From positions 42,368 to 106,367 of the forward strand of contig DATBWR010000016.1 of NCBI GenBank assembly GCA_036514715.1: a DNA stretch of 64,000 bases. Reading direction: 5' to 3'. Under the pieces are notes generated by a model. The model searched no databases and had not been told where the DNA came from. It saw nothing but the letters and a program-made list of their open reading frames with translations. Position numbers and translations under genes: made by a program. Shown piece after piece: positions 1 to 62,164 of this stretch. Source of the DNA: Candidatus Nanoarchaeia archaeon (GTDB lineage: Bacteria; Patescibacteriota; Microgenomatia; Woykebacterales; RBG-16-39-9b). The number at the start of each line of letters is the position of its first letter. The first letter of the stretch is position 1.

Positions 1-3
1 GAC

Positions 4-28
4 TAAAGACGCTCAAGCAGCGTCTTTT
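4..28 (+). terminator. Rho-independent terminator of an upstream off-window gene
   Basis: Inverted repeat AAAGACGCT/AGCGTCTTT with a 5-nt loop, followed by a TTTTT run. Confidence 0.6.
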
Positions 29-106
29 TCTAAACCTTCAGACTGCGGCGAAACTATAACCCTATACCCCCAATCTCTCACTCTTTTTGTCCCCGCGGTT
101 CGACCG

Positions 107-3100
107 TTGGAGATTGACAAAAATTCGTCTAAACGTAGCTTGGTCATTACAATCCACGGCTTCAATAGTTCAGCTACTACTGAGTTCCAAGACATGGCAA
201 GGAAAAGCGCAGGAGAGCCCTCCGGTCCCTTCGACTACATAGCCTACGGCTGGAGTCAGTTAGCAAGCAGTCTCTATTCTGGCACTAAGGTTTCACTTGG
301 ACAAGTTCCTCATCTGGAACAAGCTAGTCGCGTTGGTCGCTGTATCGCTTATGATGTTGCTAACAGCCAATACACATACGTTCATGTTATTGGCCACTCT
401 CTTGGCTCAACTGTAGCAGATTCGTTTTCCAAGAAGTTGTCCGAGTTAGTTGGTGGTTACATTACAGTAGCCCTGACTGGGCTGGATGCTTACACCGGGG
501 TAACTCCGGGAAATTTTGGTAGTGCAGCTGCCTTCACAGATCACTATCTGGCAACTGATGACTACCCACTAACTAACTGGACTTTCGCCAACGCCTGCAA
601 CGTGGACGTTACCAGCCTTAAATTTGATGGTTCCTTCACTGGAGGTTCCCACGGCTGGCCGATTCAATTCTACCTTAAAACTCTTGACAGCCCTCTCCAA
701 GTCAATTTTAAGGGTCTTGGCTTTGCTTACCATCGAGAGTACACCGGAATAACTCCGATCTTTAGCAACCGTTGTCCGCAAGGACAGGTAATTAAACTGG
801 AGCCGTGTCTTCTGAACTGCAGTCCTACGCCTGCCCCTACCCCGACTCCGACCCCCACGCCTACCCCAAACCCCACTCCAAGCCCGGGAACTTCTTGCAC
901 CACTCCGGTAGTAACTCAACCAACTGCCGGGGGGAATTATGCTGCCAACGGTTCGCCGGTGACAATCAAATGGAACACCAATTGTCCATCGAGTTATTTT
1001 GAAATCACCGGTGGGCCGTATACGTCCCCACAAACTGCTGGTTGGAGATCTGGTACCCAATATACGTATGCTCAGGGCTTATGGAGCGGGTCTTACAACC
1101 TTAGAGTTAGAGGAAGGGATTCTCAGTTACGTCAAACCAACTGGAGTACAATTGTTCCCTTTACAGTTGGGAGCTCTTCGCCCAATCCAACTCCGACTCC
1201 TCCTCCAACTTCCGGGGCGTCTTGCAGCACTCCTACGATCACCCAACCCAGTTCCAACGGCAATTTCCCTGAAGGTGGGCCGGTCACCATCAAGTGGTCT
1301 ACCAGCTGTCCCTACAGTTACTTCGAAATCACCGGCGGACCCTACACTTCACCGCAAAATGCGGGTTGGATAACGGCAAAGGAATTTACCTATGCCCAAG
1401 GTCTTTGGCCGGGCGCTTACAGCCTGAGAGTACAGGGTAAAGATTATCAGGGTAGGCAAACAGGATGGAGTTCCACAGTCAACTTTGCCGTCGGCAACTT
1501 CGCACCAACGCCCGCCTGCTCCGGCAATGGGTTGATCTACGATAGTACTGGCCGCTGTGCTGGAGTTTCTGACACAAGTTGTCACAGCCTCCCCTCACTC
1601 GGCTTAAACTCTCTTAAATCTGTCACCCTCAACTCCGGCTGGAGCGTAGTAATTTCTTCTAAAACTGACTGTAGTGATGAGATTGGTCGTTACCAACAAA
1701 GCACGACTATTGATACTGGAGTAGCCTCCGGGGCCAAGGCTATTCGTCTGGAAGCAATTCTCCCCAGCGATTGTCCCGAACTTCCACCAACCGGTGGCAT
1801 CCGCGCTTACCGTGAAGGCGGTTTCCGCGAGGGGGGTGGTTGCCGTAACACTACTCTCTCCCAAGGCGGCATTCCTTCTTTTCCAGCAGTTGGCTATCCA
1901 AACGGCCCCTCCTCCATGAAGTTTTTCGGTGACCATATTGACCGGGCCCAAGTCACGGTTTACCCGGGAGAAAATTACACTGGTACACCTTGTGCAACTT
2001 ACACCCAAGACGTTAGCGACTTCTTAAACTGCAACGGCAAAGTTATTTCTATTAAAGTGGATGCCTTCACACCGCCCACCCAGGCGCTAAATATTGCTAG
2101 TGAGGGTCAGTGGGACCTTGATATGTCCGCAGCTTTGGACAACGACCCAACCACCTGGTCGGGGGTTCCCCACGGCGGAAGCGTTGGTGTAGTTTTCCCA
2201 ACTTCACAAAAAATTCTGGGTCTAGTGGTTCACGACCGACCACCCGACTCCGTAAATCCCAACGGCATCAACAAAATTTACGTTAGTTTTGGTGGCGGTG
2301 TAAGCGGAGGCATGATCATCGATAACATCGACCTAGTGGCTTCCGGGCAACGCTGCGCCATAATAGCTCCAACAACTTCGATTGATGCCAGATGGGTTAG
2401 TATAAAGCTAGCTGATAGTAGCGGCGGTAACGGTTTTTCCGATGTGGAAATTTTCGCTGCCGACGGTGGCACTATCCGTCCAACTATTCCTTGTCCTAAA
2501 GTTTACACGGATGATGCCAAACCAGGTGTTTCCGCCCCACCTAGCAACTGGGTGGAACCAATCTCATCAACTTTGAAAACTCCAGCTTGCGATAGCAAAA
2601 CTCTCATGCTCTTTGTTGCAGCTAACGACAGCTTCTCGGACAAATGTCCTTCCAGTGGAGTGATCGGAGCAACAGAGGCTTTACCTTGCGGACCGTCGGT
2701 TCACTTCAATGGTGCACGAACAATTAATTTGACTGATAGTCCGCAATTAAACTCGGGCAAATTGTCAATAAGCATTTGCGCGAAGATTGATGCTTGGGCG
2801 GCCAGCACTTTCCTACGCAGAGAATTGCAAAACGGGGGGACAACAGACCAGTTTATGTTGGGTACGCGCGACGGTAATTTGTCGGCTCACATTTCCTGCT
2901 ACCCTGATATAATTGGCACAAAGCCTATATCTACTGGTTGGCATGTCTTAGGTTTAATCTTCGATGCTCCCAACGGAACTTTATCAACAACGATTGATGG
3001 AGTAATTGTCGACACGGTGACTAATTCTCCGGGAACCAATTGTCCTAGCTGGGATTCCGGCTATGGACCGTTGGTTTTGGGAAACAACCGCGCCAATGCC

Positions 3101-3148
3101 GATTACTTTACCGGGGACATTGCCTGGGTTAAAATCGCTACTCCCTAA
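107..3148 (+). CDS. Large multidomain surface/secreted protein: N-terminal alpha/beta-hydrolase (lipase-like, GHSLG nucleophile elbow), PT-rich linker, two tandem ~100-aa beta-sandwich repeats, discoidin (F5/8 type C)-like domain, C-terminal LamG/concanavalin-like domain
   Basis: 1013-aa ORF with motifs ITIHGF and GHSLGS. The TPTPTPTP linker, the duplicated CTTPVVTQP...FEITGGPYTSPQ modules, the ALDNDPTTWSG...VEIFA discoidin-like stretch and the FTGDIAWVKI LamG-like C-terminus are all visible. The frame is open to the window edge with a TTG start at 107, so the true N-terminus is uncertain and no signal peptide is seen. Confidence 0.75.
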   Translation: MEIDKNSSKRSLVITIHGFNSSATTEFQDMARKSAGEPSGPFDYIAYGWSQLASSLYSGTKVSLGQVPHLEQASRVGRCIAYDVANSQYTYVHVIGHSLGSTVADSFSKKLSELVGGYITVALTGLDAYTGVTPGNFGSAAAFTDHYLATDDYPLTNWTFANACNVDVTSLKFDGSFTGGSHGWPIQFYLKTLDSPLQVNFKGLGFAYHREYTGITPIFSNRCPQGQVIKLEPCLLNCSPTPAPTPTPTPTPTPNPTPSPGTSCTTPVVTQPTAGGNYAANGSPVTIKWNTNCPSSYFEITGGPYTSPQTAGWRSGTQYTYAQGLWSGSYNLRVRGRDSQLRQTNWSTIVPFTVGSSSPNPTPTPPPTSGASCSTPTITQPSSNGNFPEGGPVTIKWSTSCPYSYFEITGGPYTSPQNAGWITAKEFTYAQGLWPGAYSLRVQGKDYQGRQTGWSSTVNFAVGNFAPTPACSGNGLIYDSTGRCAGVSDTSCHSLPSLGLNSLKSVTLNSGWSVVISSKTDCSDEIGRYQQSTTIDTGVASGAKAIRLEAILPSDCPELPPTGGIRAYREGGFREGGGCRNTTLSQGGIPSFPAVGYPNGPSSMKFFGDHIDRAQVTVYPGENYTGTPCATYTQDVSDFLNCNGKVISIKVDAFTPPTQALNIASEGQWDLDMSAALDNDPTTWSGVPHGGSVGVVFPTSQKILGLVVHDRPPDSVNPNGINKIYVSFGGGVSGGMIIDNIDLVASGQRCAIIAPTTSIDARWVSIKLADSSGGNGFSDVEIFAADGGTIRPTIPCPKVYTDDAKPGVSAPPSNWVEPISSTLKTPACDSKTLMLFVAANDSFSDKCPSSGVIGATEALPCGPSVHFNGARTINLTDSPQLNSGKLSISICAKIDAWAASTFLRRELQNGGTTDQFMLGTRDGNLSAHISCYPDIIGTKPISTGWHVLGLIFDAPNGTLSTTIDGVIVDTVTNSPGTNCPSWDSGYGPLVLGNNRANADYFTGDIAWVKIATP
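890..1510 (+). repeat. Two in-frame tandem copies (~300 nt each) of a domain-coding module, preceded by a PT-rich low-complexity linker (820-893)
   Basis: The protein-level repeat TSCTTPVVTQPTAGGNY...FTVGSS aligns with ASCSTPTITQPSSNGNF...FAVGNF. This is coding, not CRISPR. Confidence 0.8.
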
Positions 3149-3209: not shown

Positions 3210-3455
3210 TTGGAGGAGAGGTTGCAACCAAATGAGGTACCGTGCGTTCGCTGTGGAGCAACAGCACAGGAGCAGATTATCGCTGTCGTTTTCAAAATCG
3301 AGGACGACGAGGTAGAGGAGATTCCTCCTGCCCTAACTAACGGTTATCACTGCAGGCACTGCAACATTGACTTCCTTTCGCCAGAACAGGAGGCTGAGCT
3401 AGCAGAGAGTCTCGAGATCGAGGCCTATGCGATCATCTACATTGAGGAGGTCTAA
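3210..3455 (+). CDS. Small acidic zinc-ribbon-like protein (CxxC...CxxC); the start is more likely the TTG at 3222, after a GGAGGAG RBS
   Basis: 81-aa ORF with CVRC and CRHC pairs and an acidic composition. A terminator hairpin lies downstream. Confidence 0.45.
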   Translation: MEERLQPNEVPCVRCGATAQEQIIAVVFKIEDDEVEEIPPALTNGYHCRHCNIDFLSPEQEAELAESLEIEAYAIIYIEEV

Positions 3456-3466
3456 CTTACCAACGA

Positions 3467-3501
3467 GCGGTTCGTTCGCAAGAATGAACCGCTTTTCTTT
3501 T
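3467..3501 (+). terminator. Rho-independent terminator
   Basis: GCGGTTC...GAACCGC stem followed by TTTTCTTTT. Confidence 0.6.
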
Positions 3502-3883: not shown

Positions 3884-4177
3884 TTAATCTTCGTCTTCGG
3901 CGTCACCAACACCATCAGAGTCAGTATCAGCGCGGTTTGGATCGGTGCGGCGATAATTAAGTTCGCTACGATCATCTAGTCCGTCTCGATCAGTGTCGGC
4001 AGTTAATGGGCTAGTGCCATGACGTAGAACTTCTTCACCGTCAGCAATACCGTCGCGGTCGCTATCTGCATAGTTCGGGTTGGTGCCTTGATAGGCTTCC
4101 TCTGTATCACTCAAACCATCATTATCAGAATCAGTTGTCCTCGGATCTTCAGTCTTTGGATCGTCTTGCATAAGCAT
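3884..4177 (-). CDS. Thrombospondin type 3 repeat-like calcium-binding mini-protein (four DxDxDGxxD repeats)
   Basis: Repeats DSDNDGLSD, DSDRDGIAD, DTDRDGLDD and DTDSDGVGD. There is no signal peptide and the RBS is weak, so it may be a remnant. Confidence 0.45.
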   Translation of the reverse strand: MLMQDDPKTEDPRTTDSDNDGLSDTEEAYQGTNPNYADSDRDGIADGEEVLRHGTSPLTADTDRDGLDDRSELNYRRTDPNRADTDSDGVGDAEDED

Positions 4178-4291: not shown

Positions 4292-4942
4292 CTAGGTGGG
4301 TTTTTCCTCGTCAATCTTGTTAATCTGAAAGTTTATATGTGGGTTTACTTTTTTAATCACAATCTCGTAATCGCCTTTATCTCTACACAGTTGAATGGTC
4401 ATTTTAATCTTATCGCTATCTTCCTCTGAACTTATAATTTTGATAAAATGTCCCACAATTTTATCATCTGTATACCCCCACTTCTTATCATCTTCTTCCC
4501 CAGATTTTCTCTCAATCATTATTGTTAGTAATGCGGTTGTCGCTGCTATCACCAAACTCATGGATGCCAGAGCATAGAAAATACCTTTATACGACCCATC
4601 GCTTATTGTAAGTAAGATGAATATAAAGATGACAGTAAACAACAAACCTGCGTTGGCCAACACGTAACCGTATTTACCTTTTATCAAGCCTAGGTCAGCA
4701 CTATTAGGTAGCAGGTGTCTTTGCAAGTAAATAATTAAAACAGCTAATAAGCTTAGGATGGTCGCTACAATTGAATATTTCAAAAAGTCTTCTGTATTAT
4801 TAAAACCAAGAGATGATGAAACTGCTTCGAACCACGTAAGTGCTAGTGGTATAAGTGAGACAGTAAAACCAAAAATATTAACAGTCCATGAGACTGCCTC
4901 GGCGGGTGAACCTTCTTTCAAAATTGTTCTCTTGATCAACAT
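4292..4942 (-). CDS. Hypothetical 4-TM membrane protein with a ~70-aa charged C-terminal domain, co-oriented 15 bp downstream of the RM gene
   Basis: Four hydrophobic helices. Lies in the ~30% GC island and forms an operon-like arrangement with 4958..8035. Confidence 0.6.
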   Translation of the reverse strand: MLIKRTILKEGSPAEAVSWTVNIFGFTVSLIPLALTWFEAVSSSLGFNNTEDFLKYSIVATILSLLAVLIIYLQRHLLPNSADLGLIKGKYGYVLANAGLLFTVIFIFILLTISDGSYKGIFYALASMSLVIAATTALLTIMIERKSGEEDDKKWGYTDDKIVGHFIKIISSEEDSDKIKMTIQLCRDKGDYEIVIKKVNPHINFQINKIDEEKPT

Positions 4943-4957
4943 AAGTAATTCTTAAAT

Positions 4958-7900
4958 TTAGAAATTTGTAGCTTTGTCTATTTCTTTCATTAGCTTTTCT
5001 GTCTCTGTTAGTGCGACTACTATCTTTTGGTAATGTTCAATATCTTCATTAGTTAAAACTCTGCCCTTGCGGTCTTTGAGCCATTTTTGCGCTGGTTGGT
5101 AACCACCGATATAGAAATTCCAAGCAATTTCAGGAACTTTGCCAAAATATTGCTCTGCATTGATAAATACTTTATCATCCTTATATATTACTTTGTCGAA
5201 AATATCTGATCCGGTTACCGGATAAGTAGTAACGAATTTATTTACCTTGGGAGATTCAAGTAAGTGCAGTGAACGTAACTCAGTACCAAAAGCAACAAGT
5301 TTTTTGAAACTTTTGACGTCCTTGGGATATGGCACACGCGGAAAATCAATTTTCAGGAATTCTTTGTATTTCTCTCGATAACTTGGCGAGTGCAAAACTG
5401 CGTAAATATAATCAAATATGTCTTCTGGTGAAACTTTGCCAACAATTTTTTCTATTTCATCAATAATTTCTTTTTTGAGATTTGCTTCTCGTGTACCATC
5501 TTCTGAATAATTATAAATTGGGAATAGATTATAAGGAGCAAAGGGTTGCGAACTCATGTCTGTAATAGAATTTGTCATATAGGAAGTAAAATGTTTTCCT
5601 GCTGCATACTGCTTACAAGCAATTATTGCATAGTTACTTCTATACATACTCGACATAACTTTTTTACTTGCTCCTCCTCTACCAATTTCTATTAAATTGG
5701 GCTGATACCATATCCATCTATAGTCGAACGGTCTGTACATGTAAACATACTCACGATAATCTTTGTCATTGTTATTTAACAGTTTTCCTTTTTCCCTTTC
5801 AGTATTCCAATACTTCCCATCCTTAATTTCCAGCTTTCTTTGAATTTCGCTTATACTGGTTTCTTTTCTTAAAACGTCTAGTTTATCTAACAGCTTCTTT
5901 TTTTCGAAATTAGTCAATAATTTATCATTATTAGTTTTTACACCATTACCATTTACAATAAAAATTTCTTTTAACGACGGAAAACTTTCATATTCCTTAG
6001 ACGAGCTGAAATTTTTAGGAACAAAGAAATAATAAGGCGATGAATAATTCAGCTTTTCCCATTTAACTTCTCTCATATCATTTTTGTTTAGTGCGTTGAA
6101 TTTATCTGCTTGCTTTCCATAAAGATCTGAGTGATATACCTCACCCAAACCTTTCTTTTCACTTTCTTTACGGAGAAAAATATTTATGGAGACACCTTGT
6201 TGGATATCAAAAACATTTTTATCTTCACCACCATCAGGGGCTTTTTCTTGAATGTTGGAATTACCATGTAGATCCAATATATAAATTTCATCGAAAGTTT
6301 CAAGTAGATGCTTTCTCATCTGGCGGTGAATAACCCCACTTATAAATGAGTTATTAGTAATCATTGCTACAATCCCACTTCCATTTTTCTCAACAAAATG
6401 TTCTGCGAAACGGATGAATTTTATATAATCATCTGAGAGGGGTTGAATATTTCTTTCATTGAGATTTGTTTTGTAATCCTTGGTGAGATTCTGTATCCAC
6501 TCACCTTTATTGGAGGAACTCACACTGTACGGCGGATTTCCGATAACTACCATAATTGGTTTTTCATTTTTTATTTTCGATGCTTCTTTTGCTTCCTCTG
6601 CGATACTTTCAGCAAAACCAAATGAAAACAGATCTTGTTGGGCTGGGCTTTCTTCGAGAGAATTGGTGAGATAAATTCCAAGTCGTTGGTTGAAATATTT
6701 AAAACCAGTTTCTCTAAAGGCCATGCTCAACTTCAAGTGGGCTATTGTATACGGTGTCATCATTAGCTCAAAACCATGCAGTCGTGGAAGCAAGTCGTTA
6801 TGAACATAGGTTGGCCAACGACCTTTTTGCCCACCTTTAAGTAAATGTGTATAGATAACACGAATAACCGCGCTAATAAAAGTACCTGTTCCAGCAGCTG
6901 GGTCAAGAATTTGAACTTTGTGTAGGTTAGAAGCTGTCTTTGACGTGTCTGCCAAACCTGTGGCAAGACCAAACTCTTTCTTGAGTAGGAAATCGACTGA
7001 ACGCACTATAAAATTTACAACAGGAAGAGGAGTATAGTAGGCTCCCATCTTTTTGCGGAGGTTTGGGTCGTATTCCTTCAAAAAATCTTCATAAAAATGT
7101 ATAACGGGATCTGGGCCCTTTTGAGTTTTACCACTTGATTCTTTTTTAAAATACTCTTCCATAAGGGCGGCGACATCAGCATGAGAGAAAACTTCACACA
7201 ATTCATTGACGATATATTCAAGTCTTTTGTCGAAGTCAGGCCCAACTATATGATCGAAAAAATGTCTGAGAAGCGGATTCGATTTTGGGATTAAGTCACG
7301 AGCTTCCTGCCTAGAAAAGTCTTTTTCCGTATCATCATGATAGCGAGCAATGAAAAGTCCATAAACGAGAGTTTGTGCGTACATATCAGCGAAAGAGTCT
7401 TTCGTTAAATCATGAACAAGAAGTTTTTTAATTGTTTCGTAGACCCGAACAAGCTCAGTATTTTTATCTGATTCGGTAGCAAGGAATTGCTTTACGTTGT
7501 CTCGAATTCTTTGAGCTTTACCTCCCATAATCTTTGCTAGATGCTGACCAGACCGTATAGGTTCTTTTTGTGATTGGGTAAAATCAAGAAGAGTTTTAGT
7601 GAGAAACTCAAAGTTTTCTGGGAAAGGTTTAGTTGTTCGACTTTTAAGGTCGTAATCGCCTATTTTTATTGGTTCTCCATAGTGAATACCGTTTCTATAA
7701 AAGCGAAACTCCAGATAGTCTGTAAGAACAAGGTTGGTATAGCCAAAATACCTAGTCATCTGCTCAGATTTTTCGACCTTATCTAGAGAGACACCAATAT
7801 CTTTTGCCTCAATATACAAAATGGGTATATCGCCTTTGAGGACAACGAAATCAGGTTTGTTACCTTGCACAGCCCGAGCATCATGAAATATGTGCAGACC

Positions 7901-8035
7901 GCCAACTGATTCAAAAACATTTTTAAGTAGAGCCTCAAGATCGGCACGGTAGCCCATCTCGCTGGTTTCTGGGTGAGAGAATTTTGTGGCGGTTGACTGA
8001 ATATAATTTTCTAAAATACCTTGCACATTATTCAT
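4958..8035 (-). CDS. Type IIL/IIG single-chain restriction-modification enzyme (MmeI family): N-terminal PD-(D/E)xK nuclease plus gamma-class N6-adenine methyltransferase plus C-terminal TRD
   Basis: 1025 aa. Motifs PDFVVLKGDIPILYIEAKD (D...EAK nuclease motif), GAYYTP, ILDPAAGTGTF (motif I) and VIGNPPY (motif IV). AT-rich composition. Confidence 0.85.
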   Translation of the reverse strand: MNNVQGILENYIQSTATKFSHPETSEMGYRADLEALLKNVFESVGGLHIFHDARAVQGNKPDFVVLKGDIPILYIEAKDIGVSLDKVEKSEQMTRYFGYTNLVLTDYLEFRFYRNGIHYGEPIKIGDYDLKSRTTKPFPENFEFLTKTLLDFTQSQKEPIRSGQHLAKIMGGKAQRIRDNVKQFLATESDKNTELVRVYETIKKLLVHDLTKDSFADMYAQTLVYGLFIARYHDDTEKDFSRQEARDLIPKSNPLLRHFFDHIVGPDFDKRLEYIVNELCEVFSHADVAALMEEYFKKESSGKTQKGPDPVIHFYEDFLKEYDPNLRKKMGAYYTPLPVVNFIVRSVDFLLKKEFGLATGLADTSKTASNLHKVQILDPAAGTGTFISAVIRVIYTHLLKGGQKGRWPTYVHNDLLPRLHGFELMMTPYTIAHLKLSMAFRETGFKYFNQRLGIYLTNSLEESPAQQDLFSFGFAESIAEEAKEASKIKNEKPIMVVIGNPPYSVSSSNKGEWIQNLTKDYKTNLNERNIQPLSDDYIKFIRFAEHFVEKNGSGIVAMITNNSFISGVIHRQMRKHLLETFDEIYILDLHGNSNIQEKAPDGGEDKNVFDIQQGVSINIFLRKESEKKGLGEVYHSDLYGKQADKFNALNKNDMREVKWEKLNYSSPYYFFVPKNFSSSKEYESFPSLKEIFIVNGNGVKTNNDKLLTNFEKKKLLDKLDVLRKETSISEIQRKLEIKDGKYWNTEREKGKLLNNNDKDYREYVYMYRPFDYRWIWYQPNLIEIGRGGASKKVMSSMYRSNYAIIACKQYAAGKHFTSYMTNSITDMSSQPFAPYNLFPIYNYSEDGTREANLKKEIIDEIEKIVGKVSPEDIFDYIYAVLHSPSYREKYKEFLKIDFPRVPYPKDVKSFKKLVAFGTELRSLHLLESPKVNKFVTTYPVTGSDIFDKVIYKDDKVFINAEQYFGKVPEIAWNFYIGGYQPAQKWLKDRKGRVLTNEDIEHYQKIVVALTETEKLMKEIDKATNF

Positions 8036-22903: not shown

Positions 22904-23791
22904 CTAGCTGTAGCGACCGGGCCCGCGGTTGCTCTTCCTGCTATTGCGCGGTGCCCCTCGCTTCTCGATCCTCTTTTTGCTTCGCGGAGTTGGTTCCGAC
23001 GGAACGTACTCGACTACCTGATGGTCTGCGAGAAGCCGCACCATTTCCTCAGCCGCACCATCAAGCGGGTCTGACGCTGCAGATTGGTGACCGTCGCAGG
23101 TAACCTGACCGTTAGCAACGGACAAGCCACCACGGTGAGGTGTGCCCCGAACAGGACAGCAGTAGTGTCCTTGGCAAACCACACCGCCTTCCACCACCCT
23201 TAGGTTCCCCCAGTGCTTCTCTGGTGAGTTCACTACGAGGCAGGATGGAGCGGGTGTGTTTGCGGGGTTATGACCCTCGCAGTGCCACCTACCGTTCACC
23301 TTCACGAGCTTCGCACCAGAGTGAGGCGTGCCGTTCTGAACCACACAGCGAACGCTTGTGGTCACCCGAGCCTTGACTCCGGAAACGATGCCGCTCTGTG
23401 GATCCGAGGCTTTTTTGGTTGCCTTGAACCCTTTTCGGCAGCGGTCGCAATACGGATTTTCACCTTCGGCGACTGGCTTCGTCACGCGCTCACACGTAGC
23501 GAAGTTGGTACAGTCGACATAACCCCTACTTCTGAGCTTCTGCACATAGCAGGAACCGCAGTAAGGGTCTAACCCTGTCCGTAGTTTCGTCAAGCGTTTG
23601 CACTTGGCGTAGTTGACACACTCAACGTACCCCTGCTTCCTCAGCTCCTCTTCGAAGCATGGTTGGCAAAGGGGACCGTTGGGATCGGCGGGGTTCTTGC
23701 CGCACTTGGAGCACATCTTTTCGCTTGGAGTCTCGGCTGAGACAGCCTCGCTCACCTTGGTTGTTTTTGCGCTTGACTTATGTGCTGCCAC
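22904..23791 (-). CDS. Cysteine-rich protein with internal repeats (3x CxxC...GYV[ED]C.N[YF]A.C and 2x GTPHxG...NG...C[ED]GH) and a basic C-terminal tail; function unknown
   Basis: 295 aa. GTG start with an AAGGAGGG RBS. GC-elevated. The repeats are visible in the translation. Confidence 0.6.
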   Translation of the reverse strand: MAAHKSSAKTTKVSEAVSAETPSEKMCSKCGKNPADPNGPLCQPCFEEELRKQGYVECVNYAKCKRLTKLRTGLDPYCGSCYVQKLRSRGYVDCTNFATCERVTKPVAEGENPYCDRCRKGFKATKKASDPQSGIVSGVKARVTTSVRCVVQNGTPHSGAKLVKVNGRWHCEGHNPANTPAPSCLVVNSPEKHWGNLRVVEGGVVCQGHYCCPVRGTPHRGGLSVANGQVTCDGHQSAASDPLDGAAEEMVRLLADHQVVEYVPSEPTPRSKKRIEKRGAPRNSRKSNRGPGRYS

Positions 23792-52860: not shown

Positions 52861-53073
52861 TTACTTGACAGGGTCAAAACCTCCCTTAGACCAAGGGTGG
52901 CAGCGCAAAATTCTTTTTGTACCTAAAAAACTGCCCCTGATTATACCATAGCGCTCGATTGCACGGTAAGTATATTCAGAACAACTGGGAACGAATCGAC
53001 AAGTGTTACTTAAGAAAATTTTGTGATGGTAGCTTTGATAAAGCTTTATCAACCTCAAGGCTAATTTCTTCAT
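52861..53073 (-). CDS. yidD: Membrane protein insertion efficiency factor YidD
   Basis: [10 protein letters not shown]...RCHPW motif. Confidence 0.9.
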
Positions 53074-53353
53074 CTTTCGCGCGCTCTATACCCGGGTGGA
53101 GAATCCAGATTGCTTCTATTCCAGGCTTTAAGGTCGTTAGTTTAGGTCTAATAAGTTCTGAGAGCTTTCTTTTTAGACGGTTACGGGTAAAGGACTTACC
53201 GACCTTAGTAGTAATGATAAAACCTATCTTCGGCCCTTCCTCTTGGAGATTTTTCTTGGCAACGACTTTAAAAAGGTTGTTACTGACCTGGATATCCGGA
53301 GCTCTTCTGTCCCACTTCACCGGTAATTTTAAACGGTTTTGTTTGGGCAACAT
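53006..53353 (-). CDS. rnpA: RNase P protein component
   Basis: Basic 115-aa protein overlapping yidD, immediately after rpmH. Confidence 0.85.
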
Positions 53354-53355
53354 TT

Positions 53356-53493
53356 CTAGATAGAAAGACGGTTTCTTTTTTTAGCAGTACGTCTTTTAAG
53401 CACCTTCTGGCCACCGCTTTGTTTTGAACGAGCTAGAAACCCGTGTTTACGAGCCCGTTTTGTTTTCTTTGGTTGGTAAGTTCGTTTCGGCAT
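53356..53493 (-). CDS. rpmH: 50S ribosomal protein L34
   Basis: Manual translation gives [45 protein letters not shown]. Missing from the ORF track because it is under 60 aa. Confidence 0.9.
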
Positions 53494-53587
53494 TGACGGT
53501 GTGCAGTATAGTAAACCCGCTTCGGGCTGTCAACGTGGTTGGCGACAAAACTGACATAGTAGGTTCCACTTCGATGGGCTTGACTGA

Positions 53588-53596
53588 TGTGGATAA
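53588..53596 (-). promoter_or_regulatory. Perfect DnaA box (TGTGGATAA) upstream of dnaA
   Basis: Exact reverse complement of TTATCCACA. Confidence 0.7.
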
Positions 53597-53653
53597 CTTT
53601 TCCTATCATGGTTTCCTGTTCTCCTTCTTAAGGTCTCTGTCCCGAAAGTATGT

Positions 53654-55018
53654 ATGGACGAAAAAACTCTTTGGAACTCTGTTCTGACCGAACTACAACT
53701 TTTGCTTTCAGGTGCCAACTACCAAACTTGGTTTAAAGGTAAAACGGTAATCCTCCACCAAGAGCGCGGGGTGATTGAAATTGGCTGTAATTCTGCCTAC
53801 ACCAAAGACTGGTTGGAGCAACGTTACCACGGCCAGTTAAAAGCTATTTTGGATCGTCTTACTGACACCAACAATGCTTTAATCTTCTCGGTTTCTGCTT
53901 CCTTGAGAAACCCACCAACGAAAGTCACCCAAAACGACTCGGGGGAGGAAGCGCTTTTGTTTACTAACCAGAGTATTGATGAACTCTACGGGAAAATTGA
54001 AGCTTGTGGGCTCAATCCTAAATACACCTTTGAAAGTTTCGTGGTTGGATCTAGCAACCAACTTGCCCATGCAGTTGCCAAAGCGGTTGCCGCCTCCCCT
54101 GGTAAAGGTTACAACCCCTTCTTTGTTTACGGTGGGGTTGGTTTGGGAAAAACCCACTTGATACAGGCAACTGGTCACGAAGCAGTTAGTAAACACCAGA
54201 AGCTTAAAGTTCTCTACTGCACCTCTGAGAACTTCACCAACAATCTCATCGAAGCAATTCAGAACCGAGCTATGAAAGAGTTTAGGGCTAAATACCGTAG
54301 TTTGGATGTTTTGATAATTGACGACATCCAGTTTATTGCTGGGCGGGAAACAACTCAAGAAGAATTCTTTCACACCTTTAATGAGCTCTATGCTAAAGGA
54401 AAGCAAGTTATTTTGAGCAGCGATCGCCCACCAGAGGCTATTTCTAAGCTTGAGCAAAGGTTAAAGAGCCGTTTTGAAGGCGGGATGATTGCCGATATCC
54501 AACCTCCAGATACTGATTTGCGAGAGGCAATTCTACTCTCGAAGATTAAACGTCAAAACATTAGTATTCCTGCTGAAGTTGTTCACTATCTTGCCCAAAA
54601 CGCTAGTTCCAGCGTGAGAGATTTGGAGGGCTCTCTAATTAGGTTGGTCGCTCAAGCCAAGATCGGCAACAACTCTTTGTCGCTAGAACTGGCAAAAAGT
54701 TTTTTTGATAAAAGGAGTCAGGGGCTTGTCAAAGCTCGCCCCAAAGATGTTTTGGAGATAATTTGTAACTACTTTGATTTGCGGCATACGGATCTTAAAA
54801 GCGCCAACCGTTTAGCTAAATTTGTTTTCCCACGCCAAATTGCTATGTACTTACTACGCAAAGACTTGGGCTTGCAGTATGCGCTTATTGCCGAGGTTTT
54901 GAACAAAAAAGACCACACTACTGTAATTCACGGTGTGGAGAAAATTACTGGTGTTGTGGAAAAATCAGAGAAAGTCCGAGGATTAGTTGAGGATATCCGC
55001 TCAAAACTTTACAACTAA
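53654..55018 (+). CDS. dnaA: Chromosomal replication initiator DnaA
   Basis: GGVGLGKTHL Walker A, the AAA+ core and the C-terminal DNA-binding domain. Confidence 0.95.
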   Translation: MDEKTLWNSVLTELQLLLSGANYQTWFKGKTVILHQERGVIEIGCNSAYTKDWLEQRYHGQLKAILDRLTDTNNALIFSVSASLRNPPTKVTQNDSGEEALLFTNQSIDELYGKIEACGLNPKYTFESFVVGSSNQLAHAVAKAVAASPGKGYNPFFVYGGVGLGKTHLIQATGHEAVSKHQKLKVLYCTSENFTNNLIEAIQNRAMKEFRAKYRSLDVLIIDDIQFIAGRETTQEEFFHTFNELYAKGKQVILSSDRPPEAISKLEQRLKSRFEGGMIADIQPPDTDLREAILLSKIKRQNISIPAEVVHYLAQNASSSVRDLEGSLIRLVAQAKIGNNSLSLELAKSFFDKRSQGLVKARPKDVLEIICNYFDLRHTDLKSANRLAKFVFPRQIAMYLLRKDLGLQYALIAEVLNKKDHTTVIHGVEKITGVVEKSEKVRGLVEDIRSKLYN

Positions 55019-55214
55019 GGGTCTTTTGTATACTTATCCACAAAACACCCACATAATTGTCCTCTGCGCGCTTGCTTAGTTTTGCTCAATAACAAACCCG
55101 AAACTACAAACCTTGGGTTGGACAATTATCAACTTATCCACACAAACTACTATTACTACTTTATTATTAAACTGTATTTAGTATTATTCTTACTGACTAA
55201 TTAAATCAAAAAGA
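55019..55214 (+). promoter_or_regulatory. oriC-like region: two perfect DnaA boxes (55034-55042 and 55134-55142), a near-box TTATCAACT and an AT-rich unwinding stretch (55145-55210)
   Basis: TTATCCACA occurs twice in the dnaA-dnaN intergenic region, with an AT-rich run downstream. Confidence 0.7.
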
Positions 55215-56312
55215 ATGACTAAACTTATCCGTGAGGACTTTTTAAAAACAATCTCAATCGCAGGGCGTTTTGTGCCTGTTCGGCCAAGCCTACCAGTACT
55301 GGCAAACATGTTATTGGAGGCTGATAAAGGTATACTGAGAGTCTCCACAACCAACCTTGATTCGTCAGTTAGGTTGGTACTGCCTGCAAAAAGTGAGGGG
55401 GTTTGGAAGATAACTACCCCAGCCAAAATTCTCACTGATTTCATCGGTTCAGCAGTTGATAAAGAGGTATCTCTAGAGGTTGATAAAGAAAACCTCTTGG
55501 TAGCCTCGGGAGAAATCAAAGGCATTTTCGCTGGAATTTCCGCCAGCGAGTTCCCCACACTACCTGAGGCTACTGAGGAGGGTAGTGAGTTTGAGTACCA
55601 CGAGCTTCAGGAAGCAGTTAATAACGTAGCCTTTGCTGCTTCTAGCGACGAGGCTAAGCCAATTTTGACAGGTATTTTTATTAACCAAGAGGCTGGTGGA
55701 ACAATTATCGTCGCCACCGACGGGTATAGGCTTGCTAAAAAGACCTTAGGAAAAAAATATGAGTTTAATCAAGTAGTCATACCGGCCAGGACCTTAGTGG
55801 AATCTTTGAGAATTGCCGGAGAAATGGGTGAGCCTTCGGTACGTTTAGTTGTTGCCAAAGGCAAAAACCAAACCCTTTTGGTAGGGGAAAACTTCCAGAT
55901 TGCCAGCCGTTTACTGTCTGGTACTTACCCACAATTTCAACAAATTATTCCCAACGATTTTGTAAATAGCTTTACCGTTGATAAAGATAAATTAACCGCG
56001 GCCATTAAAGCAACGGCAGTTTTTGCCCGGGATTTAGGTAATGTGGTGAGATTTAACCTCACCAAAAACGCCTTGAAACTAACCGCTAGTACTGCTCAGG
56101 TTGGCGAAGGGGCGGCAACTTTAGAAGTTGCTGGAGGCGGGTCAGAGATCAAAATTGCTTTTAACTCGCGCTTTATTCTCGAAGGACTAAGTGCTATTGG
56201 CACGACTACTGTTGAAGTAAAATTTAGCGGCCCGCTGAGCCCAGCCGCTATCTGCGGCAGGGGTGAAAAAGACTTTCTCTACATAATTATGCCAGTAAAA
56301 TCGCAAACTTGA
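55215..56312 (+). CDS. dnaN: DNA polymerase III beta sliding clamp
   Basis: 365 aa in the dnaA-dnaN-recF context. Confidence 0.9.
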   Translation: MTKLIREDFLKTISIAGRFVPVRPSLPVLANMLLEADKGILRVSTTNLDSSVRLVLPAKSEGVWKITTPAKILTDFIGSAVDKEVSLEVDKENLLVASGEIKGIFAGISASEFPTLPEATEEGSEFEYHELQEAVNNVAFAASSDEAKPILTGIFINQEAGGTIIVATDGYRLAKKTLGKKYEFNQVVIPARTLVESLRIAGEMGEPSVRLVVAKGKNQTLLVGENFQIASRLLSGTYPQFQQIIPNDFVNSFTVDKDKLTAAIKATAVFARDLGNVVRFNLTKNALKLTASTAQVGEGAATLEVAGGGSEIKIAFNSRFILEGLSAIGTTTVEVKFSGPLSPAAICGRGEKDFLYIIMPVKSQT

Positions 56313-57413: not shown

Positions 57414-59225
57414 CTATTTCACCGCAGACTCTTTACCAAGCTCTTGGGGGTTAGAAGTGATCAGAACGTGCTCATGAGGAGCAGCCTGGACTCTGATAGC
57501 CACGTGGTTACTACCAGCAAAGAAAATCCCCTCGCCAACATCAGCAGACAAAAGTAAGTTTCTTTCACCTTCGGAAAGATAAAAGGTGCCAACCACTTGG
57601 TCAATTGAGGCTGGTGACTGCTTTAAAAGTACTTGGATTGAGGAATTGGTGACAATCGCTCGGCCATAATCGCTAGCGAGAAAATCTTCCACGTCTTGTG
57701 TCACTGTGGTCAACCCCAAAAAGTATTTACGGGCGCGTTTAGCAATTGAATACATAAAAGAAGCGCTGTCCGGATGCTTCATCAAGTACCAAGCTTCGTC
57801 AACGATCAACAGCCGTTTCTTGCGATCCTTTTTAATTTTAGTCCAGATGTAATCCAGAATAATAAACATGCCAATGGGGCGGAGTTCATCCTCCATATCA
57901 CGGATGGAAAAAACAGTAAAGGTGTTCTTGATATCAATTGTGGACTGACGGTCGAAGATGCCGGCCAAGGAACCGCGAATGTATTTTTCAATTCTTTCCG
58001 CCATGGACTTTGCTTCTGGCTCAGCGCTATTGAGCAAAACTTCATAAAGATCCTCAAGTACTGGGGAGGGTCTAGTCTGAGTGGCTGGATCTGGGGTAAT
58101 TCCCTTGAGTTTGTAGGTAGTGATCAGGGCACGATCAAGAATGGCATCTTCAGTCGGGGTCATGTTACCTAAGACGATCCGGAAAAGTGAGTGCAGAGAA
58201 AGGATTTTTAAGCCCAACTCGTTTTCACCTTCTTCGTAGACGCCGGAGAGATCAAAAGGGTTAATTTTAGAAGCTTCCCGAGCCGCAAACTTAATATACT
58301 CACCACCGATTGCCTCGCACAAGGGGTGGTACTCTTCCTCGGGATCGATGATAATTATTTCCGTACCGAACATTAAACTGCGCACGGCTTCCAATTTAGT
58401 TAAGTAACTTTTACCAGCCCCACTCTTGGCAAAAACCACACTGTTAGCATTTTCCAAAGTAAAGCGGTCAAAGATCACGAGTGAGCCGTTGTGCTCATTA
58501 ATGCCGTACAAAATACCTTCATTGGCGGTCAGTTCTGAAGAAGTGAAAGGAAAAGTAGTTGCCAGAGAGGTGGTGTCCATATTACGGGTTACCAAAAGTT
58601 TGTCGGTAAAAGTTGGCAGGGTAGTCTGAAAACCCATTTCTTGCTGGAGGGTAGCGTGTTTGGTGACAATGAGTAAGGAGCCAAGGGTGGCCTCAACTTG
58701 CTTAGTGACCGCATTTAACTCATCAAGAGAGTTAGCTGGAACAGTGACATAGAAAGAAAGCTGGAAAAAACGTTCGATACCGGCCACTAACTGATCCTGT
58801 AAGGATTGAGCATCCTCCAAGGCGATTTTTACTGCCGGATCAACAACTCGACCTTTGTCTAAATCACCTTCGACCGTCGCTTCCATCTCAGCGATTTTAC
58901 GACGCAGCTCATCTAATATCCCTTTAGCTTCAACTGGATAGTAGTAAAAGACAATATCAAGGGTATGGTCAAAATTGATAATCGGTGCGAGCCAGTTGGC
59001 GCCGACAAAACGTGGGTAGCCAGAGACAAAGAGAGTTCGAAAGAAAGTTTCCCCAATCCGAAGATGATCGAAATCAACCTGCAAGGCCGGTGGAGCAATA
59101 ATATCTTTGACATCTACCATACCCCGACCAAGAGTCATTTTCACTTTGTCGCGGGTAGAAGCTAGTTCTAATTCCTGTGGGGAGGGAGGTTGTTTCTTGC
59201 GAAAGAAATTTGCTAAGAGGCTCAT
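57414..59225 (-). CDS. VirB4/TrbE/CagE-family type IV secretion ATPase (middle and ATPase domains)
   Basis: Walker A FAKSGAGKSYLTK, Walker B LLIVDEAWYLM and a C-terminal TQ motif (GLTTVTQDVEDF). Confidence 0.7.
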   Translation of the reverse strand: MSLLANFFRKKQPPSPQELELASTRDKVKMTLGRGMVDVKDIIAPPALQVDFDHLRIGETFFRTLFVSGYPRFVGANWLAPIINFDHTLDIVFYYYPVEAKGILDELRRKIAEMEATVEGDLDKGRVVDPAVKIALEDAQSLQDQLVAGIERFFQLSFYVTVPANSLDELNAVTKQVEATLGSLLIVTKHATLQQEMGFQTTLPTFTDKLLVTRNMDTTSLATTFPFTSSELTANEGILYGINEHNGSLVIFDRFTLENANSVVFAKSGAGKSYLTKLEAVRSLMFGTEIIIIDPEEEYHPLCEAIGGEYIKFAAREASKINPFDLSGVYEEGENELGLKILSLHSLFRIVLGNMTPTEDAILDRALITTYKLKGITPDPATQTRPSPVLEDLYEVLLNSAEPEAKSMAERIEKYIRGSLAGIFDRQSTIDIKNTFTVFSIRDMEDELRPIGMFIILDYIWTKIKKDRKKRLLIVDEAWYLMKHPDSASFMYSIAKRARKYFLGLTTVTQDVEDFLASDYGRAIVTNSSIQVLLKQSPASIDQVVGTFYLSEGERNLLLSADVGEGIFFAGSNHVAIRVQAAPHEHVLITSNPQELGKESAVK

Positions 59226-59944
59226 TGCGGTGCTTCTCCCGTACTTTCCGAGCCTTCCGCTTGAGTGGGTTGTAAGGCCGGTTCGACAATTGGAGTAGTA
59301 TATTCAGTGGTATTTAAGGCTGCTTTTTGCTCGCGAGACACCTCGGGGTTATAAAGATCGTAGAAAAATTCTACCAGCTCTTCGGTACGTAAAAGCCTAG
59401 TTTTAACCCCAATACGAGCAATTTGTTTGGTCAAATGGTCGATTTTTGGCCCTAAGTTGACTTTGGCTTTTTCTAAAGTGTGCCACTTATCGGGGACAGG
59501 TTTGTCTTTCTTTACCAAACTCGGTAAAGTTAAGGCTTGCGAAAGACTGGTATTAGCATAGGGTATCACCACGTAGAAGCGTTTATCAAGGACTTGGTTT
59601 TTCGAAACTAAATCATGGATAAATTTAGTGTAAAGGCCAATCATATTGGCTAAACTCTCGTTCACCGCCTGGTTTTGAGCGCCAGCAAGAAGCTTCAGGT
59701 AGCTAGAGATATCCATACGTTTCGAACGGACTACAATTTGAATTGGATAGGTTAGCGAGTTCAAAAGAGCTGCGTAAGCGAAAATCATGGCGTCTTGCTC
59801 CCGCTCGGAAAGCAGGTCAAAATTAACTGCCGTGGTTTGCAGAATGGCCACCGCGTTGCCGTTTTTTAAAATGACCAAATCATCACGAATATCTTCGATA
59901 TCTAAATGTTGTTGAGTGGAAGCATTGGGGGTTTTGGCAGCCAT
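59222..59944 (-). CDS. VirB4 N-terminal-domain-like protein (split VirB4, translationally coupled by an ATGA overlap)
   Basis: The pattern LDIEDIRDDLVILKNGNAVAILQTTAVNFDLLSEREQ...YPIQIVVRSKR resembles the VirB4 N-terminus. The stop/start overlap is at 59222-59225. Confidence 0.45.
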   Translation of the reverse strand: MAAKTPNASTQQHLDIEDIRDDLVILKNGNAVAILQTTAVNFDLLSEREQDAMIFAYAALLNSLTYPIQIVVRSKRMDISSYLKLLAGAQNQAVNESLANMIGLYTKFIHDLVSKNQVLDKRFYVVIPYANTSLSQALTLPSLVKKDKPVPDKWHTLEKAKVNLGPKIDHLTKQIARIGVKTRLLRTEELVEFFYDLYNPEVSREQKAALNTTEYTTPIVEPALQPTQAEGSESTGEAPQ

Positions 59945-59950
59945 GTTTTT

Positions 59951-62164
59951 TTATCGAGCGCTAACCGGAGTATTAATGTTTTTAGCCTTAATTTCGATCG
60001 GTTGCATCACTGAACCGCTGGCTTCAACTTCAATAATGTCAAACTCGTAACCTGCTTTTTCAAGTTCCAGAGTGTAAATTCCGTTTGGCAGAGGAGTCGA
60101 AAGGGCAAACTGACCTAATTTGTTAGGTCTGAAGGCCCGTACCGGCTCCCCATCTTTATTTTTAACAATAATGACGACGCCCGAGAGTAATAGGCCGTTG
60201 GCATCTTTGATAATACCATTAATGACATTAGGTACGTTCGGGGTGTTAGGTAACATTTTACCGTAAGCAGGAGTGGCTTTGACAGTTGGCTTGGTAACCG
60301 CTCGAGCTTTTTTGGCCTGCTCTCTGCGGGCTAAGTCTTTAATTTCCGCAATAACCCGGGCCTTATCCTCAGGGGAAGTGAACTTCTTGCCTGCTTCTTT
60401 TAGAGTTTCGATCCTTTCCTGGGTGCTTTCGGTAGGTACAGCTTGGGGTTTTAACTGAGAAAACAGTTTTTGTAGCTCGTCATTAATACGCCGCTTTTCT
60501 TGAACTGCCTGAAGCTCGCTAAATTGCTTCAGAACGTTGTTGTCCCGCTCCAAAGCCTCGAATTTTTCCAGCATCTCTTTTCTCTGTTGTTGGCTCAGCT
60601 GTTTTAGAGTTTGGGGGTCGAGGTTCGCTAAGGCAGTTTTAAGTTGCTGGAAACTGGGTTTTAAATCTTCAGGGCTAACTTCAAGTGGCGGCGGTACTGC
60701 TATTTTAAGTGGTTGGGTAACTTCTGGTTTTGACGGTGGTGAGAGTGGCTCCACTCTCTGCGAGATGGGTAAAGCCCCCTCCTGGCTAGTTGCTGATTTA
60801 GCCGGTTCTTGAGGAAGTTTGGGTACGCTTTCAGTAGGGACTGCTGGTGGAGTTGAAGGCTTGCCTTTCTCCTCAAGATGTCGGAGCAAGTCCCGCACGC
60901 TTTCGAATGATTGACTACTAACTTCCAGAGGAGGCTTCTCTACTTGAACGATGATAGGGCTGGGAGATTGCTTGGACTCTGGACCAACTGGCGGTTTTAG
61001 TTCTTCACTGGGTATGACTAATACCGTCTTGGGAGCCTCTGGTAAAGGTTTCTCGGTGTGGAGTTTGGCAAAATCAAATTTTGGTTCAACCCCTGGCTGG
61101 TGGTGAGTTTCGTGCTTGGCTTGGTGAGGGTACTTTACACCTTTGGTTTTTTCTTCCAGAGAGTCAGTTTTTTGCTTGAGATGTTTAAGGGCCAGTGAAT
61201 GACTATTAATTAAGTTAGTCAGGGCCCTCCTCCAGTTTTCAGCTGCTTTCAACAAACGCTCGTCAACATCGACCCTTTCTTTTAAGGAAAAAATTTCTTG
61301 GCTTTGGGAAGGGCCGCGAGCTAAATTAAAAGTTCGGTCGAGATCCACAACTTCTTTAACCAAAGCCTTAATCTCTTCCTCCAATTTTACAATGTGCTTT
61401 TGATAATCAGCGTAGTTGTCAGCGCTTAAAGTGACGAGCGGTACTACACCTCGAGACTTCTTGGTAATTGGCTGGCTAGCTAACTCCAAAGAAGTCTCAG
61501 CCTCTTGCGGTTGATTTTGGTCAGCTGTAGAGACAGTAACCGGTTTTGCAAAGGCTAGTTTAGGAGACTCGCTTGAAGACAGAGTAGTTGCCTCTTGGTT
61601 TGGGGTTTTTTGGCGAGTGATTTCTTCGGCTACTCGTTGTTTAATTTGTTCAAAGAGAAGCTTATTAACGTCATCCAACTGACTTTTAATTTGGTCGTTA
61701 AATTGATGATTACTGTTGAGTGCTTCTTGACTGACTACTGGTCTGGGCTTTATAGCTTGGGTTTCTAAATCGTGAGAATTAACATAGGCGCCAGTTTCTG
61801 CAGAAGGTTTAGTGAGTGCCTCAAAAGCAGAGCTTGCCTTGGCCTTAATCTCAGAGTGTAGCTTTGGGGTAAGGCCAACTTGCGGTTCACCTTTAATGCT
61901 GATACTTCCAGAAGTTCCTAAAATTGATGGCGACACTGCTCTAGTGTGAGTGTTTTTAACCGCTCTTACGTAGACATCTCGATCAGGTAGTTGTATCTTA
62001 GTAACCGGTTTAAAACCCACCTCTCCAGCAATCTTAGCTCTCAGCTCCTGGTGAGTTTCAACTACTTGGCGCGGTTTTTGGCCTGGCAAATAACCTTGGC
62101 TAAAGGCAAGCCCGGGGTGGGTCAAAAGGTCAAAACTAGGTAGGCTTTCTTTTTCAGGTATCAT
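59951..62164 (-). CDS. 737-aa low-complexity/coiled-coil protein with a C-terminal carboxypeptidase-regulatory-like beta-sandwich domain (putative T4SS-associated surface/scaffold protein)
   Basis: P/Q/E/K-rich, central coiled-coils and a C-terminal GIIKDANGLLLSGVVIIVKNKDGEPV...GIYTLELEKAGYEF stretch. Confidence 0.6.
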   Translation of the reverse strand: MIPEKESLPSFDLLTHPGLAFSQGYLPGQKPRQVVETHQELRAKIAGEVGFKPVTKIQLPDRDVYVRAVKNTHTRAVSPSILGTSGSISIKGEPQVGLTPKLHSEIKAKASSAFEALTKPSAETGAYVNSHDLETQAIKPRPVVSQEALNSNHQFNDQIKSQLDDVNKLLFEQIKQRVAEEITRQKTPNQEATTLSSSESPKLAFAKPVTVSTADQNQPQEAETSLELASQPITKKSRGVVPLVTLSADNYADYQKHIVKLEEEIKALVKEVVDLDRTFNLARGPSQSQEIFSLKERVDVDERLLKAAENWRRALTNLINSHSLALKHLKQKTDSLEEKTKGVKYPHQAKHETHHQPGVEPKFDFAKLHTEKPLPEAPKTVLVIPSEELKPPVGPESKQSPSPIIVQVEKPPLEVSSQSFESVRDLLRHLEEKGKPSTPPAVPTESVPKLPQEPAKSATSQEGALPISQRVEPLSPPSKPEVTQPLKIAVPPPLEVSPEDLKPSFQQLKTALANLDPQTLKQLSQQQRKEMLEKFEALERDNNVLKQFSELQAVQEKRRINDELQKLFSQLKPQAVPTESTQERIETLKEAGKKFTSPEDKARVIAEIKDLARREQAKKARAVTKPTVKATPAYGKMLPNTPNVPNVINGIIKDANGLLLSGVVIIVKNKDGEPVRAFRPNKLGQFALSTPLPNGIYTLELEKAGYEFDIIEVEASGSVMQPIEIKAKNINTPVSAR

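Follow-up and report, generated by a model that had tools for sequence, protein, structure and literature searches.

The gene described here lies at the left edge of a 64,000-nucleotide stretch of DNA (the window; part of contig DATBWR010000016.1), and its product is probably a secreted serine esterase of the lipase or phospholipase A1 (PLA1) type, which, judging from sequence and structural models, would deacylate lipids at a surface bound by its own lectin-like modules. In the window the gene appears as an open reading frame (ORF) of 1013 codons on the + strand, running from a TTG at 107 to the stop codon at 3146–3148 in the ORF listing; all features of the gene given below are on this strand, and residues are numbered along the full-length protein of 1080 amino acids, P0001. 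In the proposed scheme, a signal peptide would export the protein by the Sec route, the N-terminal head would deacylate lipids (neutral ones, or phospholipids or glycolipids in the manner of a PLA1), immunoglobulin (Ig)-like modules may act as spacers, and crystallin-like, discoidin-like and LamG modules would keep the enzyme bound to a surface bearing glycans, which could be the producer's own envelope or that of another cell. Two other proteins share this architecture (P0002 and P0003, about 60% identity, both recovered from Logan assemblies).

The catalytic head corresponds to an alpha/beta-hydrolase domain resembling pancreatic lipase and PLA1 (residues 39–305, window positions 20–820). 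It contains an HG oxyanion motif (H84-G85, 155–160), the nucleophile S165 within GHSLG (398–400, the motif spanning 392–406), an acid, D194, within TGLDAY (485–487), a second conserved acidic residue, D212 (539–541), and H249 within HGWP (650–652). A profile built from the three N-terminal domains was searched against 1.84 billion representatives and matched 579 proteins at E≤1e-3, 112 of them at E≤1e-10; the family numbers 579 clusters or more (50% identity). Invariance was read from 61 full-length proteins and 30 domain sequences: H84-G85, W116, G144, H160, H164, S165, G167, T191, D194, H249, Y256 and G272 are present throughout. The family signature is HG … [GAS]-H-S-x-G … L-D-[AP]-[YF] … [DE]-[HQ]-Y … H-x-W-P, with 25–33 residues between Ser and Asp and 53–70 between Asp and His. 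Since the triad residues are invariant and their spacing is kept, the head does not look like a pseudo-enzyme. A first-pass annotation, made from the letters of the window, had proposed a lipase-like alpha/beta-hydrolase head from the GHSLG motif and had suggested looking for the catalytic triad on an alignment, in case the domain was inactive; the head is borne out, with Ser, Asp and His all in place.

The AlphaFold2 model of the head, computed with the family alignment as input, is of high quality (pLDDT 90.7, pTM 0.90), and the order of its secondary-structure elements puts each catalytic residue at the position that an alpha/beta-hydrolase needs. The features that define this superfamily, namely the sheet, the G-x-S-x-G elbow and the order Ser-acid-His, were all found. 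The HG motif follows the first core strand, Asp194 comes directly after the strand following the Ser165 elbow, and His249 opens the helix after the Asp194 region. The nearest solved structures are members of the pancreatic lipase/PLA1 family: hornet venom phospholipase A1 (4qnn, Z 18.4), human pancreatic lipase-related protein 2 (PLRP2; 2oxe, Z 17.7) and lipoprotein lipase (LPL; 6u7m, Z 15.8), all further structural matches having Z≤13. The sequences point in the same direction, the head-family profile matching PLRP2, PLA1, pancreatic lipases and LPL at E values of 3.8e-10 to 1.4e-5 over a region reaching from the oxyanion strand through the Ser elbow to the Asp motif. Every significant profile match of the head is a lipase or a PLA1 of this one family. 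On PLRP2, GHSLG aligns with IGHSLGAH and TGLDAY with TGLDPAEP, the corresponding family profile being TfLDaytP. An acidic D/E, D212 in this protein, is always present in the next strand, which is the canonical acid position of alpha/beta-hydrolases, and either acid could complete the triad. According to Schrag, Winkler and Cygler in 1992, an acid placed after the strand following the nucleophile helix is reportedly the pancreatic-lipase arrangement, and pancreatic lipase itself is said to show the same two-acid duality.

The segments flanking the active site of the head are short, a trait shared with PLA1s and not with triglyceride lipases bearing a lid. In the animal family, the lid and beta9 loops of PLA1s are less extended than those of lipases (PMC9031518), so that the short loops here would suggest PLA1-type rather than triglyceride lipase activity.

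The gene is truncated by the window, and this is why the N-terminus of the protein had been misread in the first-pass annotation. The frame is free of stop codons from window base 2 to the TTG at 107, and the start of the gene was thus lost at the window edge. P0001 is 100% identical to the product of the whole ORF and carries 67 additional N-terminal residues; the NCBI entry HEY4695187.1 (P0153; window 2–3148), labelled "hypothetical protein", is identical to P0001. On the longer JGI contig L001, the extension is uninterrupted and the gene starts at a GTG (L001 8103) located 95 nt 5' of window base 1 and preceded by AAGGAAGGA, with a Shine-Dalgarno site. The first 32 codons, which are outside the window, hold most of the signal peptide. 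Hence the TTG is not the start codon, the gene does not start inside the window, the supposed lack of a signal peptide came from the missing residues, and the feared interruption of the ORF upstream does not occur; of the 1013-residue protein described at first, the ORF stands, within a product of 1080 residues.

The hairpin at 4–28 (L001 8201–8225), which had been taken for the terminator of the upstream gene, is intragenic. It is terminator-like, with a 9-bp stem, a 5-nt loop and a U-rich tail (−11.4 kcal/mol, z −3.85 by RNA folding), and it sits inside the coding sequence, about 100 nt 3' of the GTG start codon, overlying the signal-peptidase site. The upstream neighbour, a PMT_2-family glycosyltransferase gene on the same strand (L001 6258–7877), ends about 225 nt before the GTG and about 320 nt before the window edge, and possesses its own terminator at L001 7922–7943. 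Neither homolog locus, L082 or L083, shows such a hairpin at the corresponding position; the one seen here could be due to chance or could represent a lineage-specific attenuator or pause element.

The N-terminus of P0001 reads VKVNFASYLKAALLPLFTLVFFLTASIGLFDWTKDAQA, followed by ASFSKP. By inspection, it shows Lys at positions 2 and 10, an h-region at residues 11–30, which is the sole hydrophobic window of the protein (Kyte-Doolittle 2.2), and a signal-peptidase I site after A36-Q37-A38 and before A39, i.e. between window bases 19 and 20; the last six codons of the signal peptide (residues 33–38, TKDAQA) occupy positions 2–19. P0002 and P0003 have equivalent signal peptides, cleaved after THA and before AS at the same aligned position. 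Among the 26 cysteines of the protein, 23 are conserved. Apart from the signal peptide, P0001 has no membrane segment, and neither a terminal LPXTG sorting signal nor a PEP-CTERM motif nor a lipobox was found in it. An internal LPPTG (residues 626–630) was considered as a sortase signal and rejected, as it is not conserved and no hydrophobic tail comes after it. The best reading of these sequence features is a protein that is Sec-exported, disulfide-rich and unanchored; with no anchor or membrane segment, it would be released, unless its binding modules retain it non-covalently.

Behind the head, a Pro/Thr-rich linker (821–895, residues 306–330, PTPAPTPTPTPTPTPNPTPSPGTS), with a 12-nt period at 839–867 (Tandem Repeats Finder), agrees with the linker noted in the first-pass annotation. 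It leads to Ig-like module A (896–1171, residues 331–422), a second Pro/Thr-rich linker (1172–1222, residues 423–439, SSSPNPTPTPPPTSGAS) and Ig-like module B (1223–1495, residues 440–530), an extra and more diverged copy. The two tandem modules had been called Ig- or fibronectin type III-like: there are indeed two, of about 91 amino acids each, and the Ig likeness is weak, since the module profile matches the bacterial immunoglobulin domain 9kvu over its full length at E 0.02, and module B matches Pfam Big_7 and Ig_J at E of about 0.02–0.03, below cut-offs. Modules A and B share 65% of their amino acids, 65% of their nucleotides and 43% of their third codon positions, synonymous sites are saturated, and no DNA repeat was detected between them. 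P0002 and P0003 have a single module, which is closer to copy A (71% and 66% identity, respectively) than to copy B (65% and 56%); module B is an insertion relative to both homologs. With 43% third-position identity, saturated synonymous divergence (dS) and one module in the homologs, these comparisons indicate that the extra copy is a lineage-specific but old duplication, not the recent one that had been envisaged.

Next comes an unassigned Cys-rich module (1517–1780, residues 538–625), which contains six conserved Cys and has no Pfam or PDB sequence match; its AlphaFold2 pLDDT is below 50, and it is conserved in the homologs with a ratio of nonsynonymous to synonymous divergence (dN/dS) of 0.39. 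The next segment (1781–2071, residues 626–722) is tentatively a beta-gamma-crystallin-like, double Greek-key module. Its top seven PDB profile matches are clostrillin and bacterial beta-gamma crystallins (E 0.11–0.27, sub-threshold), and 8 of its 15 sub-threshold PDB matches are beta-gamma crystallins (E 0.11–1.4). The top seven align on Y-x-x-x-N-Y-x-G…S-[IV]-K-V, and the eight on the second Greek-key motif, VTVYxGENYTG…KVISxKV, in a region where the AlphaFold2 model is unreliable, and Pfam gave no match. This module is the most conserved of the protein (94% identity between P0002 and P0003, dN/dS 0.09). These two modules, about 185 amino acids (1517–2071), had been overlooked in the first-pass architecture, of which the hydrolase head and the Pro/Thr-tethered beta-rich modules remain.

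The segment previously called discoidin (2072–2476, residues 723–857) may adopt a discoidin- or CBM32-like fold (CBM, carbohydrate-binding module), which is galactose-binding-domain-like. This likeness is tentative and at the fold level, in a poor AlphaFold2 model built from three sequences (pLDDT 40); sequence families do not back the name, as no Pfam family, PF00754 included, matched the segment at E≤10 in any of the three homologs, and no PDB sequence did at E≤10. A profile search with the alignment of residues 538–862 was empty at E≤0.01 and at E≤10, an unreliable negative because the search also missed P0001–P0003 themselves, and one that does not mark the region as an orphan. The protein ends with a LamG/concanavalin-A-like lectin domain (2588–3145, residues 895–1080), proposed before and now confirmed by a marginal pass: Laminin_G_3 (PF13385) scores 27.9 bits on the ORF for a cut-off of 27.6, and 31.3 bits on the segment alone, over profile positions 5–140 of 151. 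All three homologs carry this family in their precomputed annotations.

Several points weigh against a lipid-deacylating enzyme of the pancreatic-lipase type. PF00151 is the only specific family match on the ORF, and its score stays below the gathering cut-off of 27 bits, with 20.9 bits for the ORF and 24.3 for the isolated domain; 10 of 30 members of the head family match PF00151 at E<0.01. Foldseek against the PDB returned only weak, generic alpha/beta-hydrolase matches (TM 0.3–0.44). The equivalence of His249 with the lipase His (His263 of pancreatic lipase) is one that we infer. The three middle modules, recognized at sub-threshold scores or low confidence, are tentative assignments, and modules of the CBM32 and LamG types occur more typically in carbohydrate-active enzymes than in lipases. 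As Foldseek is weak and PF00151 remains below its cut-off, we assign the head to a prokaryotic sister group of the pancreatic-lipase/PLA1 family, one that is uncurated, and not to PF00151 itself. NCBIfam has no model for the hydrolase domain, a tblastn search of the domain against plasmids gave no match, and a literature search for bacterial pancreatic-lipase homologues or phospholipases of the Candidate Phyla Radiation (CPR) found nothing specific. Among bacterial proteins, the head family would be the closest to the animal pancreatic-lipase/PLA1 family, and neither Pfam nor NCBIfam captures it. The type of protein is otherwise ordinary, being another secreted modular serine hydrolase that is poorly annotated in public databases.

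The appended CBM32- and LamG-type modules make a carbohydrate or polymer ester a real alternative substrate. The protein would then be an acetyl, feruloyl or cutinase/polyesterase-like esterase targeted to a polysaccharide or cell-wall polymer and not acting on lipids, a reading which we regard as unlikely and which survives better than the others. It would suit the lectin- or CBM-type nature of these modules, as well as the fusion of the head family to C-type and legume lectins, CBM96, dockerins and LamG. Yet the three best structures and all significant profile matches are lipases or PLA1s, with a gap between Z 15.8–18.4 and Z≤13 for what follows, and the acid lies in a GLD motif after the strand following the nucleophile helix, which is, reportedly, how pancreatic lipase is arranged.

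It is quite improbable that the protein is a housekeeping envelope enzyme working on the lipids, lipoproteins or lipoglycans of its own surface, and directed neither to a host nor to food. The neighbourhood, which is one of housekeeping and cell-envelope genes (PMT_2 upstream; MurJ, LCP, FemAB and MraY-like proteins in the window), and a GC content at third codon positions (GC3) only slightly above the genome background would agree with such a role. However, the rarity of the full-architecture gene, found in 3 proteins among 5.8 billion clusters and in none of the 185,579 GTDB species representatives, and a neighbourhood that is not conserved in the homologs fit poorly with a core envelope function.

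The first-pass annotation had named the protein a candidate host-interaction factor of a possibly episymbiotic bacterium. A host-directed version of the lipid-deacylating enzyme is speculation, and its chances appear just as slim as those of the housekeeping enzyme: a PLA1-type exoenzyme of an episymbiotic CPR cell would free fatty acids and lysolipids from the host membrane, its lectin-like modules binding to the host envelope. CPR bacteria have been reported to be without lipid biosynthesis and enriched in lysolipids, possibly derived from the host through phospholipase A action (PMC7242380). If the source is really a CPR bacterium that is auxotrophic for lipids, scavenging of lipids from other cells would be a plausible role for a secreted PLA1-like enzyme with lectin-type targeting modules, and harvest of the host membrane, if true, would make the protein a concrete candidate for the lipid-acquisition step of CPR.

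An adhesin or surface-binding protein whose head is catalytically irrelevant or a mere binding domain is very unlikely: about 70% of the mature protein consists of non-catalytic beta-rich modules, the extra Ig-like module lengthens the stalk in this lineage and an ORF with bacterial thrombospondin type 3 (TSP3) repeats is found nearby, but the HG motif and the Ser, Asp and His residues do not vary across hundreds of clusters, the head is under purifying selection and no cell-anchoring signal is present.

Compared with the pancreatic lipase/PLA1 family (4qnn, 2oxe, 6u7m), the lipase/PLA1-type enzyme proposed here has the same aligned HG oxyanion strand, G-H-S-L-G elbow and T-G-L-D motif, and is likewise secreted and disulfide-rich. 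It differs by an identity of 15–20%, a Pfam score below the gathering cut-off and its prokaryotic origin, and by having neither a PLAT/colipase-binding C-terminal domain nor a disulfide-bracketed lid; instead, the head is followed by Ig-like, crystallin-like, discoidin-like and LamG modules. The PLAT beta-sandwich domain, present in vertebrate lipases only, had no match in the ORF. Insect PLA1s, which consist of the family's catalytic N-terminal domain with short active-site loops, as does the head here, are also devoid of PLAT (PMC9031518), so this domain is not required for family membership. Members of the uncurated prokaryotic hydrolase family (P0004–P0152) have the same domain and signature and are extracellular and modular, but they are 23–38% identical to the domain described here, and no other scanned member shares the architecture except P0002 and P0003, each with one Ig-like module. 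Elsewhere in the family, the head is in many cases combined with PEP-CTERM, dockerin or lectin modules, which are extracellular contexts. The arrangement of a catalytic head, Pro/Thr linkers and galactose-binding-like or concanavalin-A-like targeting modules also recalls the CBM32-bearing glycoside hydrolases of Clostridium perfringens, the head here being a lipase-type serine hydrolase and the CBM32 likeness being at the fold level only, in a weak model.

Between the genes of the two homologs, dN/dS is 0.19 overall, 0.19 in the head and 0.02–0.39 in every module; on these sequence comparisons, the gene is real and under purifying selection. The full-length alignment, run against GTDB genome contigs and against JGI metagenome contigs, picked up no relatives. 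Synonymous divergence is uneven along the two homolog genes (L082 2023–4947 and L083 1969–4932), with dS of 0.97 in the hydrolase head and 0.21–0.32 in the middle modules, a pattern that suggests intragenic recombination or a mosaic origin.

The window belongs to a bacterial chromosome and carries genes for LepA, MurJ, an LCP-family (LytR-CpsA-Psr) protein, the DNA polymerase III delta subunit, TIM, PGK, UvrD/AddA-type helicases, RmuC, MetRS, GroEL, LeuRS, FemAB, an MraY-like transferase, TsaD and DnaA, HrcA being located just upstream on L001. The best matches of LepA among GTDB representatives show 57–58% identity and are mostly Patescibacteria, other phyla reaching 51–55%; together with the bacterial cell-wall genes of the window, this makes a CPR (Patescibacteria) affiliation of the source likely. 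A protein identical to P0001 is deposited as 'Candidatus Nanoarchaeia archaeon', a label that conflicts with the bacterial gene content; the metagenome-assembled genome is probably mislabelled or chimeric. The GC content of the target gene is 0.50 for a background of about 0.43, and its GC3 is 0.47 for 0.40–0.43; horizontal acquisition is not supported by these values, the excess being mostly due to a composition rich in Gly, Pro, Ala and Thr.

The genes flanking the homologs are different, with a GHMP-kinase-like gene and a HAD hydrolase gene, and no operon logic emerges. O-glycosylation of the Pro/Thr linkers by the upstream PMT_2 protein is conceivable but not supported: a terminator separates the genes and the adjacency is not kept in L082 and L083. 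Directly after the target gene, an 81-codon ORF (3210–3455, +; GC 0.51) encodes a zinc-ribbon-like protein with a CxxC…CxxC pattern, which belongs to no Pfam family and is absent from the homolog loci. No terminator lies between the two, and one with a 13-bp stem is found at 3465–3494; because the terminator comes only after the 81-codon ORF, both genes are probably co-transcribed. On the opposite strand, TSP3 (Ca-binding) repeats make up nearly the whole of a 97-codon ORF (3884–4177, −) that lacks a signal peptide and may be a fragment or a gene with a misassigned start; the version found on L001 is longer and runs off the contig.

Further away, a low-GC island (4292–8035, −; 0.36 for about 0.43) encodes a Type ISP/MmeI-like restriction-modification fusion enzyme of 1025 amino acids (Type_ISP_C, N6_Mtase) and a multi-pass membrane protein of 216 amino acids without family, and is probably a mobile defence island. 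The ORF at 22904–23791 (−, 295 codons) is a compositional outlier, with a GC of 0.575 and a GC3 of 0.63, far above background; its product, rich in repeated Cys pairs and in basic residues, matches no Pfam family. The dnaA gene (53654–55018) is followed by a + strand ORF (55215–56312), and the cumulative GC skew reaches its minimum at about 52–54 kb, the region 52900–56312 being probably the chromosomal replication origin. Near this putative origin (57414–62164, −), a TraG/VirB4-like P-loop ATPase of 603 amino acids is encoded close to a 737-residue protein with a weak CarboxypepD_reg-like domain, and these genes possibly belong to a type IV secretion or conjugation-like surface apparatus.

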